Assembly (NCBI GenBank): GCA_024280895.1
Contig: JAJRPI010000024.1
Span: 14-64,013, forward strand
Direction of reading: 5' to 3'
DNA length: 64,000 nt
DNA from: Alphaproteobacteria bacterium
Lineage (GTDB): Bacteria; Pseudomonadota; Alphaproteobacteria; Rhizobiales; JAKIUO01
A program made the position numbers and the translations under genes. The number at the start of each line of letters is the position of its first letter. The first letter of the stretch is position 1. The notes under the pieces were generated by a model. It saw nothing but the letters and a program-made list of their open reading frames with translations, had not been told where the DNA came from and made no database searches. Shown here piece by piece: positions 844 to 36,993 of this stretch.

Positions 844-1004
844 GCAGAGCTGCGGGGTGCGTCAGGAACCAAGAAATTCCCCGGGCCGATAATCTTCCAT
901 TGGGAGCCGACGCTGCCAGGGCCCTGGTCCTGATCATTTGGCGCCCACCTTATATTAAGGGACTTGGAGGAATTCAAAGCGCTCCAACGGCTTTTGCGGC
1001 CTGC
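844..1004 (+). ncRNA. ssrS: 6S RNA (alphaproteobacterial type), ends approximate
   Basis: Directly downstream of zapA. The ends can pair (GCAGAGCTGC / GCGGCCTGC). Internal blocks CCCGGGCC, GGGAGC, GGTCCTG, TGGCGCCCACCT, GGAGGA and AACGG match alpha 6S RNAs as I recall them. Length ~160 nt. Confidence 0.75.
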
Positions 1005-1033
1005 TGTTTTCTTTATTTGATTTTACTTTTTTG

Positions 1034-1279
1034 ATCTCACGGCTATTCGCGCTAACGCGCGGCCTGCTTTTTGGTTGCCCTATCGCTTCGCTGTTTGAGG
1101 GCTATGGGCGGGCTAAGCCCGTCGGCCAGTCGGCCTTACCTATGGGTACATCGGAATACTTATCTGATACAAAATCGTCCTTGGAAAAAGAACTCCGACC
1201 GATAGGGCGGCAAGCGTGACCGCGCGCCGGGCTGTAGCCCGCCTATCGGAGGCCGCGTTAGCGCGAATGGCCGTGAGAT
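1034..1279. repeat. Mosaic palindromic element (MITE/BIME/REPIN-like), copy A
   Basis: Terminal inverted repeats ATCTCACGGCTATTCGCGCTAACGCGCGGCCT (1034-1065) and AGGCCGCGTTAGCGCGAATGGCCGTGAGAT (1250-1279), with internal hairpins. A related copy lies at 63561-63805. Confidence 0.8.
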
Positions 1280-1419: not shown

Positions 1420-3807
1420 ATGAGTATAAGTAATGCAGCGCTGCCGACCATTTCAAAAATGATCTGGGAAAGAAAATATGCCTTGAAAAATGAAGATGGT
1501 TCGCTGGTCGACTTAAGCGTTGAGGATAGCTGGCGGCGTGTCGCCAAGGCGGCTGCGAAGGCTGAGAAAAAGGCTGATCGAGCCAAATGGCGCAAGTGCT
1601 TTTATAAAGCGATGGAAGATTTCGCGTTTCTCCCCGGTGGTCGTATTTTGGCGGGCGCAGGGGCCAATACGCTCTTGGGGCGGAAACTGACCTTGTTCAA
1701 TTGTTTCGTCATGAACCAGGTAGAGGATGATACCTCCTCGATCTTTGAGACTTTGCGTGAAGGTGCCCTGACCATGCAGCAGGGCGGCGGGATTGGTCTT
1801 GATTTTTCGACCCTGCGGCCAGCAGGTGCACTGGTACGCGGGGTCGGGGCTGATGCGGCGGGACCGGTCAGTTTCATGCACGTGTTTGATGCCATGTGCG
1901 GGACTATACAGTCTTCGGGGGCACGAAGAGGCGCGATGATGGCGACCTTGCGTGTTGATCATCCCGATATTGAAAAATTTATAGATGCCAAGTCACAGCC
2001 CGGGCAATTGAATAATTTCAATCTGTCCGTGCTGATCTCTGATGCCTTTATGAAGGCGGTGGATGAGGGGGCCGACTGGGGCCTTTGCTTTGATGGCAAA
2101 ATATATGAGACGGTGAAAGCCTCCACGCTGTTTGACAAGATCATGCGCGCTACTTATGAGCGCGCTGAACCTGGCGTGTTGTTCATGGATCAGGTCAACA
2201 AGCGCAATAAACTATCTTATTGCGAAACAATTTATGCGACCAATCCTTGCGGGGAGCAGCCTTTGCCTCCCTATGGGGCTTGCATGCTGGGTTCGATTAA
2301 TCTGACCCGCCTGATCAAGCAGCCGTTTGCAAAAGAAGCTCGCCTTGATGAAAATAGATTGGTTGAGTTGGTCAAGGTGGCGGTCCGGTTTCTTGATAAT
2401 ATCATTGATATTTCTGGCTATCCCTTGAAGGCCCAAAAACAAGAAGCCAAGGCAAAAAGACGTATTGGTCTTGGCATCACAGGGCTTGGCGATGCGCTTG
2501 CCATGTGCGGGGAGCGCTATGGGGACAAGGCAGCACGTAAGTTGGCGGCGCGCTGGATGAGCCTTATTCAAAATAGCGCTTATCTGGCGAGCGCCGATTT
2601 GGCACAAGAAAAAGGGGCCTTTCCCCTGTATGATGCGGAGCAGCACCTGGCATCACCCGAATTGGCATTTTTGCAAAAAGAAACGCTCAAGAGCGTCAAA
2701 AAGTATGGGCTTCGCAACGGGCTTTTGACCTCAATTGCGCCAACCGGCACCATTTCCTTGCTAGCGGGCAATGTCTCGGGCGGCATAGAGCCCATATTTG
2801 ATCTCTCTTACCAGCGCTCATTTCGTGACCAGAGCGGATCGTCCCATGACCAGCAGATTGAGGATTATGCCTATCATCTGCATCAGCAGCTGCAAGGAGC
2901 TGATAGCTCTTTACCAGACAGTTTTACAACGGTTGCGGATTTGATCCCGAATGATCATTTGGCCATGCAGTCAGCTTTGCAGCCCTTTGTTGATAGCGCT
3001 ATTTCAAAAACCATAAATTGCCCGCAGGATATTTCGTTTGCCAGTTTCAAGTCGATTTATGGCGATGCGTATGCGTTGGGCCTCAAAGGCTGCACGACCT
3101 ACCGGCCAAATGCCATCACCGGGTCCATATTGAAAAGCCGAATAGATATTAGTGACGGTGATGAGTTGGCGAAAGTTTCAATCGAGGAACAATGGGAAAA
3201 CGAAGGTGTTATATCTACGCAAGCTGCCCTGCCTTTGCCGGCGCTGCACGGTTTGCAAAAGGCCGCGCATAAACGATCTCATCCAGGCAATGATGTGCAT
3301 TATTTGAGCGATCCAATGGAGCGCGGTGCAACCTTGGCTGGATATACCTACAAATTGCGTTGGCCAGATAGTGAACATGCGACCTATATCACTATCAATG
3401 ATGTCATCCTCAATGAGCGGCGTCGGCCCTTTGAAATATTTATCAATTCAAAAAACCTCGAACATTATGCCTGGACCGTGGCGCTCACGCGGATGATCTC
3501 GGCCGTGTTCCGGCGCGGCGGGGATGTGTCATTTGTTGTTGAAGAATTGAAAGCGGTATTTGACCCGCGCGGAGGCCAATGGATGAACGGTCACTATGTG
3601 CCAAGTCTGTTGGCGGCGATTGGCGAAGTGGTTGAAAAACATCTGATTGATACCGGATTTCTCTTGCGGTCTGGTGATCAAAAAAAAGGAGAAGCGGAGC
3701 CGACTATGAAGAAAGCGCGCTATTGTCCCAAATGTTCGCAGCCTGCTCTGGTCTATCAAGAAGGATGTCATAATTGTCGTTCGTGTGGATATTCAAAATG
3801 CAGTTAA
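1420..3807 (+). CDS. nrdJ: Adenosylcobalamin-dependent (class II) ribonucleotide reductase with C-terminal TSCPD-like and Zn-ribbon domains
   Basis: Motifs FLPGGRIL, TLFNCFV, GGGIG, TNPCGEQ, IAPTGTIS, KGCTTYRP and C-terminal CPKC...CHNC..CGYSKC. ATG 1420 is preferred over GTG 1384 because of GGAAGG upstream. Confidence 0.93.
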   Translation: MSISNAALPTISKMIWERKYALKNEDGSLVDLSVEDSWRRVAKAAAKAEKKADRAKWRKCFYKAMEDFAFLPGGRILAGAGANTLLGRKLTLFNCFVMNQVEDDTSSIFETLREGALTMQQGGGIGLDFSTLRPAGALVRGVGADAAGPVSFMHVFDAMCGTIQSSGARRGAMMATLRVDHPDIEKFIDAKSQPGQLNNFNLSVLISDAFMKAVDEGADWGLCFDGKIYETVKASTLFDKIMRATYERAEPGVLFMDQVNKRNKLSYCETIYATNPCGEQPLPPYGACMLGSINLTRLIKQPFAKEARLDENRLVELVKVAVRFLDNIIDISGYPLKAQKQEAKAKRRIGLGITGLGDALAMCGERYGDKAARKLAARWMSLIQNSAYLASADLAQEKGAFPLYDAEQHLASPELAFLQKETLKSVKKYGLRNGLLTSIAPTGTISLLAGNVSGGIEPIFDLSYQRSFRDQSGSSHDQQIEDYAYHLHQQLQGADSSLPDSFTTVADLIPNDHLAMQSALQPFVDSAISKTINCPQDISFASFKSIYGDAYALGLKGCTTYRPNAITGSILKSRIDISDGDELAKVSIEEQWENEGVISTQAALPLPALHGLQKAAHKRSHPGNDVHYLSDPMERGATLAGYTYKLRWPDSEHATYITINDVILNERRRPFEIFINSKNLEHYAWTVALTRMISAVFRRGGDVSFVVEELKAVFDPRGGQWMNGHYVPSLLAAIGEVVEKHLIDTGFLLRSGDQKKGEAEPTMKKARYCPKCSQPALVYQEGCHNCRSCGYSKCS

Positions 3808-36670: not shown

Positions 36671-36845
36671 GATCTTTTCTTTCCAAAAAGGCGGGACTGC
36701 CGATAATCTATGGTTTTGTCTGGCATATTGCAAAAGGTTCAGGGCTGAATTGTTTGTGATGCGGGGTCTTGCTAGCGGTTGTGCTTAACGACAAGCGATG
36801 ATGAATAACTTGATTTGTCGCTTTTGTTGGGGCAAAATGGCTTGT

Positions 36846-36907
36846 GTGTGGTGATTTGGCCGGTCGGCTTGCAGCCACGTTAAAAAAGTCGCTAAAAAAG
36901 GCCGAGG
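36846..36907 (+). promoter_or_regulatory. SAM-II (SAM_alpha) riboswitch upstream of metX
   Basis: GTGGTGATTTGGCCGGTCGGCTTGCAGCCACGTTAAAAAAGTCGCTAAAAAAGGCCG matches the SAM_alpha pattern and sits in the metX leader. Confidence 0.9.
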
Positions 36908-36993
36908 GATCTGTGAGCCCGGCTTTATTGATGCGGTAAAGTCGGTTTTTTTGTGCGCCTGATTTGTTTCAAGGCCACGAGGAGGTAAGGCAG

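Follow-up and report, generated by a model that had tools for sequence, protein, structure and literature searches.

The 64,000-nt window analysed here (contig C32, GenBank JAJRPI010000024.1, of alphaproteobacterial assembly GCA_024280895.1, hereafter G000) contains, near its two ends, a pair of quasi-palindromic elements designated A and B, described in an earlier sequence-only reading as dispersed copies of one element whose core is inverted between them, possibly an invertible non-coding switch. In both A and B, two copies of a repeat unit of ~95 nt, here called the arm, face each other head to head as a doublet; the elements belong to a modular repeat family. The reading preferred here, to which we assign a probability of roughly three in four, is that the core is flipped by general recombination between arms, with no dedicated switch; that the arms are likely 3′-end modules; and that the doublet is mobile.

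BLASTN of A and B against G000 (3.36 Mb in 96 contigs, 50.6% G+C) returned ~50 related loci, 8.9 kb in total, many at contig ends. Reading of the larger loci and alignment of 63 copies showed the true unit to be the arm rather than the 246-bp element. From its start, an arm consists of a T-rich leader, a 15-nt terminal motif ATCTCACGGCTATTC (designated T), hairpin 1, a linker GGCCTCCGATGG, and hairpin 2; it ends with GGCG, hairpin 3 with a conserved AGTC or GGTC loop, CTTGCC, hairpin 4, and a T-rich tail. The alpha, beta, and gamma arm types are not separate modules but co-varying stem alleles of hairpin 3 (GGCC/GGCC, GCGT/ACGC, and GCCC/GGGC, respectively); further stem alleles are GGGC/GCCC, GCGC/GCGC, and GCTC/GAGC, and each allele tends to go with a particular hairpin 4. 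With a covariance model of 52 aligned arms, 89 arms are found in G000, of which A and B account for four and an array at the window end for two more. This disposes of the possibility that only these two copies exist. The arms in the window, some with a nested hairpin element designated X, are as follows (window positions; covariance-model matches in contig coordinates):

1034-1161, plus strand: left arm of copy A, alpha type, with X nested in it (C32:1047-1174, 60.9 bits). Its parts are T, 1034-1048; hairpin 1, 1049-1060; GGCCT, 1061-1065; X, 1066-1103; hairpin 2, ~1108-1122; hairpin 3 (GGCC-AGTC-GGCC), 1124-1135; hairpin 4, ~1139-1154.
1155-1192, no strand: AT-rich centre of copy A between the arms, unique, holding the T-rich tails of both.
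1188-1279, minus strand: right arm of copy A, beta type (C32:1201-1292, 83.9 bits; alignment row A_right_1290b). Its parts are T, 1265-1279; hairpin 1, ~1255-1265; linker, 1242-1254; hairpin 2, 1228-1241; hairpin 3 (GCGC-GGTC-ACGC), 1214-1225; hairpin 4, ~1193-1209.
63558-63683, plus strand: left arm of copy B, beta type, with X nested in it (C32:63571-63696, 47.8 bits), starting 2 nt past the TAG stop (63555-63557) of the upstream open reading frame (ORF).
63713-63804, minus strand: right arm of copy B (C32:63726-63817, 87.4 bits), with hairpin 3 GGGC-GTT-GCCC and a hairpin 4 of the alpha kind.
63810-64000, minus strand: two more alpha arms, head to tail with a 99-bp period (C32:63823-63916 and C32:63922-64014).

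The alpha-arm array is cut by the window end and carries on in contig C84 (positions 1-336), which continues the B locus, as judged by synteny with a locus (L049) in the related genome G003; after three or four further alpha units the array abuts the 3′ end of an XerC-like gene (region C84:1-1340).

An RNA fold of the left arm of copy A reproduced hairpins 1, X, 2, 3, and 4. Covariation was assessed on the 52-arm alignment (48 arms from G000 and four from Tepidamorphus, a Rhizobiaceae metagenome-assembled genome (MAG), and Citromicrobium). In the stems, 93.9% of cells form standard pairs, and 17 of the 20 pairs are altered on both sides; none of 500 shuffles reached the observed values, and sliding the partner by one to three columns left 28-43% paired. 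Arms are paralogues that exchange sequence; the figures speak for selection on the forming of hairpins, whether by RNA or by single-stranded DNA, and do not count independent events. A long-range pairing of the CCGATGG linker with the 3′ half of hairpin 4, suggested by one fold, had no covariation support in the alignment and was rejected.

Both copies lie where they were originally placed (A at 1034-1279, B at 63561-63805), and much of what had been proposed about their relationship is borne out. In a module-wise global alignment, the left modules (T, hairpin 1, and X) are identical in 56 of 73 columns (76.7%) and the right modules in 31 of 38 (81.6%), collinear in both cases, so that the outer arms do match in place as claimed; the core (138/139 nt) is 75.5% identical when inverted vs. 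62.2% in the same orientation, in agreement with the proposed flip. The residual direct similarity of the cores can be put down to the palindromic symmetry of the element itself. By BLASTN against the genome, positions 73-210 of A match the minus strand of B at 76%, whereas the plus-strand match of positions 4-246 reaches only 70%. The hairpin repeats GGCGGGCTAAGCCCG and CGGGCTGTAGCCCGCC, described as inverted and as bounding the core of A, are real, and are hairpin 2 of the left and right arm; the AT-rich centres of A and B do differ.

Arms in G000 stand alone, follow one another head to tail in arrays, or, around a short AT-rich centre, face each other as head-to-head doublets (architectures of 45 loci were tabulated). 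Sixteen of the 18 doublets join an alpha-like to a beta arm; two are beta-beta and none is alpha-alpha (P = 4e-4 to 7e-4 under random pairing). As a consequence of this heterotypic pairing, the outer ~55 nt of a doublet (T to hairpin 2) form an inverted repeat around an asymmetric inner core of ~105-140 nt. The flipped look of the core is due to the different alleles of hairpins 3 and 4 borne by the two arms. Many G000 contigs end inside arms, and the repeats therefore break assembly. The occurrence of singles, arrays, and doublets, with hairpin alleles and X reshuffled at conserved linkers among paralogues and at orthologous loci alike, fits the original description of the elements as assembled from modules and similar to bacterial interspersed mosaic elements (BIMEs) and to REPINs, hairpin-forming doublets of repetitive extragenic palindromic (REP) sequences.

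X, a hairpin element of 40 nt in its own right, is nested after GGCCT and ahead of hairpin 2, and had been seen as part of the outer-arm pattern, TTTT.GTTGCCCTA.CG.TTC.CT.TTTGAGGGCT. Its 5-bp stem co-varies (GCCCT, GTCCT, GTGCT, GCGCT, GCTCT) around a conserved 16-nt loop, ACCGCTTCGCTGTTTG. Besides its two copies in the window (1066-1103 in copy A and 63589-63626 in copy B), examples in G000 are at C59:56915-57023, C49:58963-58998, and C79:6517-6557. There are 48 in all, 16 behind a clear T motif, two in arms with a degenerate T, and ~30 solitary or in tandem arrays of their own. X is found in alpha arms (copy A and C86:43483), in beta arms (copy B and C64:116727), and also in gamma, solitary, and array arms, as well as nested in another composite repeat, CAGCGCTGGGGAGT...TCCCCAGACCCC. 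It is an independent element family. Because X occupies the alpha arm of A but the beta arm of B, it accounts for part of the apparent flip of the core between them, when this is read from the X-bearing arm.

Evidence for real inversion comes from orthologous loci in close relatives of G000, which are deep-sea MAGs. Flanks of 31 element loci from three of these (G001, G003, and G005) were placed on G000, with flanks 79-95% identical. Most of the mapped loci are occupied in G000 as well, and the elements are therefore largely inherited in place; their internal order is often different. The clearest case is the locus C49:40662-41009 (compared with L007 and L018), where the 105-nt core of G000 is 91.4% identical to that of G003 when inverted, without gaps, and 56% directly; compared with G001 the values are 86.7% inverted and 57.3% direct, with the left outer arm 96.4% identical in place. 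G001 and G003 have the core in the same orientation (83.8%), but their outer arms are exchanged (94.5% vs. 85.7%). The three species thus display three of the four possible combinations of outer arm and core orientation, which matches expectation for crossovers at different depths of an inverted repeat. Arm and core are 87-96% identical between species at this locus vs. 82-91% for flanking coding DNA, which suggests constraint, or homogenisation by conversion. Two other loci are also flipped between species, one on C10 (75% inverted vs. 53% direct) and one on C26 (69% vs. 60%); at the C86 and B loci orientation is kept, and X and the hairpin 1 allele of the left arm differ. The elements may be called invertible only over evolutionary time, between species, with the C49 core inverted and its outer arm in place; the proposed role as a switch is another matter, taken up below.

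Arms and doublets are also gained and lost. The spacer between the 6S RNA gene and nrdJ, which in G000 holds copy A, has a beta-beta-X doublet plus an extra alpha arm in G005, only a TATCTCACGGCT stub in G001, and nothing in G002 or G004. In G003, a whole alpha-beta doublet sits exactly between a TAG stop and the sequence ATCGATA; the same site is empty in G000 and in the more distant G001, and no target-site duplication is seen. A doublet can therefore move as a unit, in the manner of a REPIN, without target duplication and apparently without a REP-associated tyrosine transposase (RAYT); this result comes from one insertion event.

A doublet as a rule consists of an alpha arm that faces a beta arm over a unique AT-rich centre of short length, and the mechanism proposed here acts on this arrangement. 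The core would be flipped by general recombination, or by template switching, between the inverted arms: a crossover inside an arm would flip the core alone, and one at the tip would flip everything. Gene conversion at the conserved linkers could swap modules, X included. A dedicated recombinase would be unnecessary, and the element would not be a programmed switch.

What the arms do is suggested by where they lie. Outer arms in G000 always face the neighbouring gene T-first. In 23 of the 33 that have a long ORF upstream, the stop codon is 1-7 nt before CTCACGG, and in 11 it is exactly 5 nt before; six unrelated genes end in an identical GGCTTAATCT leader, which seems to supply their last codon and TAA stop. 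The gene contexts are 16 convergent, 12 tandem, and four divergent; doublets nearly fill convergent spacers, with a typical gap of 2-8 nt on each side. Six of the 41 tRNA genes carry an arm 11-12 nt past the CCA, and copy A begins, T motif first, 28 nt past the end of a 6S RNA gene. The 10 nt following hairpin 4 include a mean of 6.0 T. T-first placement behind stop codons, tRNAs, and 6S RNA, together with a terminal hairpin and a T-rich tail, points to transcribed 3′-end modules, and most likely the arms act in the transcript as terminators or stabilisers, to judge by position and shape. One doublet would then serve both of two convergent genes and, like being swapped for like, a flip should be close to neutral.

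The immediate surroundings of copy A are:

844-1005, plus strand: 6S RNA gene (Rfam RF00013, 63 bits; gathering score 46.4).
1420-3807, plus strand: nrdJ-like ribonucleotide reductase gene (ORF listing; ORF from 1384, likely ATG at 1420), so labelled in the sequence-only reading.

The beta arm of copy A points toward the 5′ region of the nrdJ-like gene. Just upstream of the gene, at 1349-1377, is an inverted repeat, TGTTCT-N17-AGAACA, kept in each of the five congeneric genomes with a 6S-nrdJ spacer, whether the repeat element is there or not; it is probably an operator. No other assembly on record encodes an identical NrdJ. The window also contains a SAM_alpha riboswitch (RF00521, 72 bits) at 36838-36917, in keeping with its alphaproteobacterial source.

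Several observations weigh against parts of the preferred reading. The comparison of A with B, taken by itself, fits the landing of X in different arms as well as it does a flip of the core after the arrival of X. The orthologue of A in G005, as a beta-beta doublet, is uninformative on the flip (68% direct vs. 66% inverted). The pattern at C49 could in principle stem from re-insertion at a preferred site combined with conversion of the outer arms, rather than from reciprocal inversion. As for a role in termination, the tail past hairpin 4 is interrupted (GGAAUUCUUUU), which would make it a weak terminator at best, and a consensus terminator scan of copy A did not call hairpin 4, flagging only hairpin 1 and the T-run that opens X.

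The alternative that survives best is that the arms are primarily functional RNAs, a 3′-untranslated-region or trailer family (for example with the single-stranded CCUCC linker as an anti-Shine-Dalgarno seed), rather than selfish DNA, so that copies and doublets would be by-products of duplication. Conserved single-stranded linkers and loops alongside freely co-varying stems are what this would predict, as are the order-wide conservation of the architecture and the fixed T-first orientation behind genes, tRNAs, and 6S RNA; the C49 arm and core, moreover, are at least as conserved as flanking coding DNA. Hairpin covariation is equally expected, however, for single-stranded DNA recognised by a transposase, and an Rfam search matched no family to copy A even at E values up to 10, detecting only 6S and SAM_alpha in the window. 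Where the gene context is tandem, as in A, the right arm of a doublet is oriented against any transcript arriving from upstream, and the fresh doublet insertion in G003 and the presence/absence differences at the 6S locus show mobility at the DNA level. As the whole explanation we regard it as rather unlikely, at perhaps the level of a reasonable minority opinion.

It had also been named as a refuting alternative that the core could be a separate MITE (miniature inverted-repeat transposable element), inserted either way round into a palindromic outer element. Nesting does happen here, X being an independent element inside arms, but the core is not a unit of its own. Hairpins 3 and 4 invariably adjoin T and hairpins 1 and 2 in one continuous run, even in solitary arms and in head-to-tail arrays where an arm has no partner; BLAST with the core alone matches only copies inside doublets, with no core-only copies found; and the four-hairpin arm is kept as one piece in distant genera. 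An inner MITE is accordingly very improbable.

A programmed switch, in which a site-specific recombinase would flip the core at the hairpin-2 inverted repeats and so change read-through into, or expression of, neighbours such as nrdJ, has in its favour that the core is bounded by inverted repeats, that sister species differ in its orientation at three orthologous loci, and that a recombinase gene adjoins the B array. This last is also the qualification needed to the original statement that there is no recombinase in the window, which is correct for the window itself: the XerC-like tyrosine recombinase gene lies just past its end, on C84, where it is convergent with the array. By its scores of 316 bits to XerC model TIGR02224 (cut-off 335), 264 to XerD, and only 54 to tyrosine DNA invertases, its product ranks with the housekeeping Xer proteins rather than with invertases. 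G000 has five resolvase-type and seven integrase-type genes, and none but this one adjoins arms; nor is a common partner gene evident across the 93 genomes and 49 genera of the order in which the family was found. A promoter scan of 780-1450 found no promoter-like sites in or around copy A. Both arms of a doublet finish in the same kind of hairpin and T-rich tail, so that a flip swaps equivalents, and most of the 18 doublets (among 89 arms) lie between convergent gene ends, with nothing obvious for a flip to regulate. A switch is thus hardly credible. A classical MITE of a DDE insertion sequence (IS), with the T motifs as terminal inverted repeats (TIRs) mobilised in trans by an IS transposase, has as little to recommend it, since although doublets do end in inverted copies of ATCTCACGGCTATTC, the one clean insertion lacks a target-site duplication, single arms and head-to-tail arrays have only one “TIR” each, no transposase lies between paired arms in G000 (the search of other genomes was not exhaustive), and 72,556 plasmids searched with arm queries gave no match save one weak partial match in Phyllobacterium.

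Two candidate mobilisers were considered and rejected. The sole RAYT of G000 (175 aa, 198 bits to NF047646; region C10:1853-2901) is flanked by GTAGGGCGCAATGTATTGCGCC, and a search of its flanking repeats found GTAG REPs, not arms; among genomes of the order, Y1_Tnp is absent from 69 of 93 that bear arms, and 18 of 24 arm-rich ones have no Y1_Tnp match. The second was a possible transposase between facing arms on C40; by eye, the ORFs of this 2-kb interval look like an ordinary pair of YCII-like and ECF-sigma-like genes. The GTAG REP family of GTAGGGCGCAATGTATTGCGCC itself has 24 REPs in G000, mostly in inverted doublets of ~88 bp, and occurs also on C43, C47, C64, C66, and C74.

Several known systems resemble the arm family in part. 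REP elements of E. coli and other enterobacteria are reportedly organised as BIMEs, and many REP units are said to lie within ~15 nt of a stop codon. Like BIMEs, arms are extragenic hairpin units, direct and inverted, joined by a few conserved linkers into mosaics of variable combination, mostly behind genes, and two unit types alternate head to head (alpha and beta here, Y and Z units in BIMEs). The likeness is one of function, not of homology: there is no sequence relation, and an arm has ~95 nt, four hairpins, and a 15-nt terminal motif, as against a single palindrome of 35 nt. REPINs are reportedly mobilised by RAYT Y1 transposases. Arm doublets share with them an inverted doublet as the moving unit, without target duplication (in one event), slightly different halves, and dozens of intergenic copies. 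Arms lack, however, the constant tetranucleotide tag (GTAG or CGTC) at the foot of a REP palindrome and any link to a RAYT, the only one in G000 being flanked by its own GTAG repeats and most arm-positive genomes having no Y1 transposase.

Invertible DNA switches such as fimS, hin, and the Bacteroides invertons are driven by recombinases. Doublets resemble them in having a segment between inverted repeats that occurs either way round, but they have no adjacent recombinase (apart from the XerC-like gene at the B array) and the segment contains no promoter; the comparisons that show both orientations are between species; and their inverted repeats are structured and ~55 nt long, rather than short recombinase sites. 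Within the order, RIME1 and RIME2 are said to be Rhizobium-specific intergenic mosaic elements, and by description they too are intergenic mosaics of large palindromes. The plasmid collection presumably includes the S. meliloti megaplasmids, and the near-absence of matches in it argues against identity of arms with RIMEs. RIME1 and RIME2 are mentioned in passages of PMC2573895 and PMC2245857. MITEs of the DDE type differ in that doublets have inverted T motifs without a duplication, single arms are one-ended, and no parent IS was found in G000. The family, then, works like REP/BIME mosaics and REPINs yet fails their tag and RAYT tests, and it fails those for MITEs and invertons as well.

Among 301 genomes sampled from the order, the covariance model finds arms in 93, and among the 129 genera sampled, in 49; in the rest of the class Alphaproteobacteria, they were found in only five of ~300 genomes. 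MAG records labelled Hyphomicrobiales carry single arms that share the terminal motif and linker, and this name is taken here for the order. At ten loci in other genera of the order (L026, L027, L031, L046, L052, L073, L074, L076, L077, L079), an arm starts 8-13 nt past a tRNA CCA, and is often followed by a piece resembling the T-arm, acceptor end, and CCA of a tRNA (e.g., GTTCGAGGTTTCTC...GCACCA); L052 has tandem repeats of a unit made up of the tRNA 3′ piece and the arm. In these arms from distant genera, hairpin 4 (GAACCC...GGGTTCGA) is itself T-arm-like. A literature search on MITEs and tRNA in Alphaproteobacteria returned nothing relevant.

A flipped core alone, as a by-product of a quasi-palindromic repeat doublet, would be of modest interest. 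The family is more unusual: a strongly co-varying 95-nt, four-hairpin unit with no Rfam entry, no plasmid-borne copies apart from the weak match, and neither a RAYT nor an IS as partner. The unit is positioned almost to the exact base behind stop codons and the ends of tRNAs. A tentative suggestion, with the odds somewhat against it, is that the arm represents an undescribed class of element of its order (about a third of sampled genomes, and sporadic in other Alphaproteobacteria), which would home to the sites immediately following a stop codon or the CCA end of a tRNA, with neither target duplication nor RAYT, be kept under structural selection as an RNA 3′-end module, and, as doublets, flip its cores repeatedly by arm-to-arm recombination. 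Were this the case, each genome would have dozens of loci at which DNA inverts naturally without a recombinase. If the arms are RNA modules, they would be a very abundant and unannotated 3′-end element of the Hyphomicrobiales MAG lineages found here. Flips, conversions, and gain or loss of arms separate species that still share 80-90% identity in the flanking genes, and such rapid mosaic rearrangement matters both for assembly and for the interpretation of synteny breaks in these genomes.

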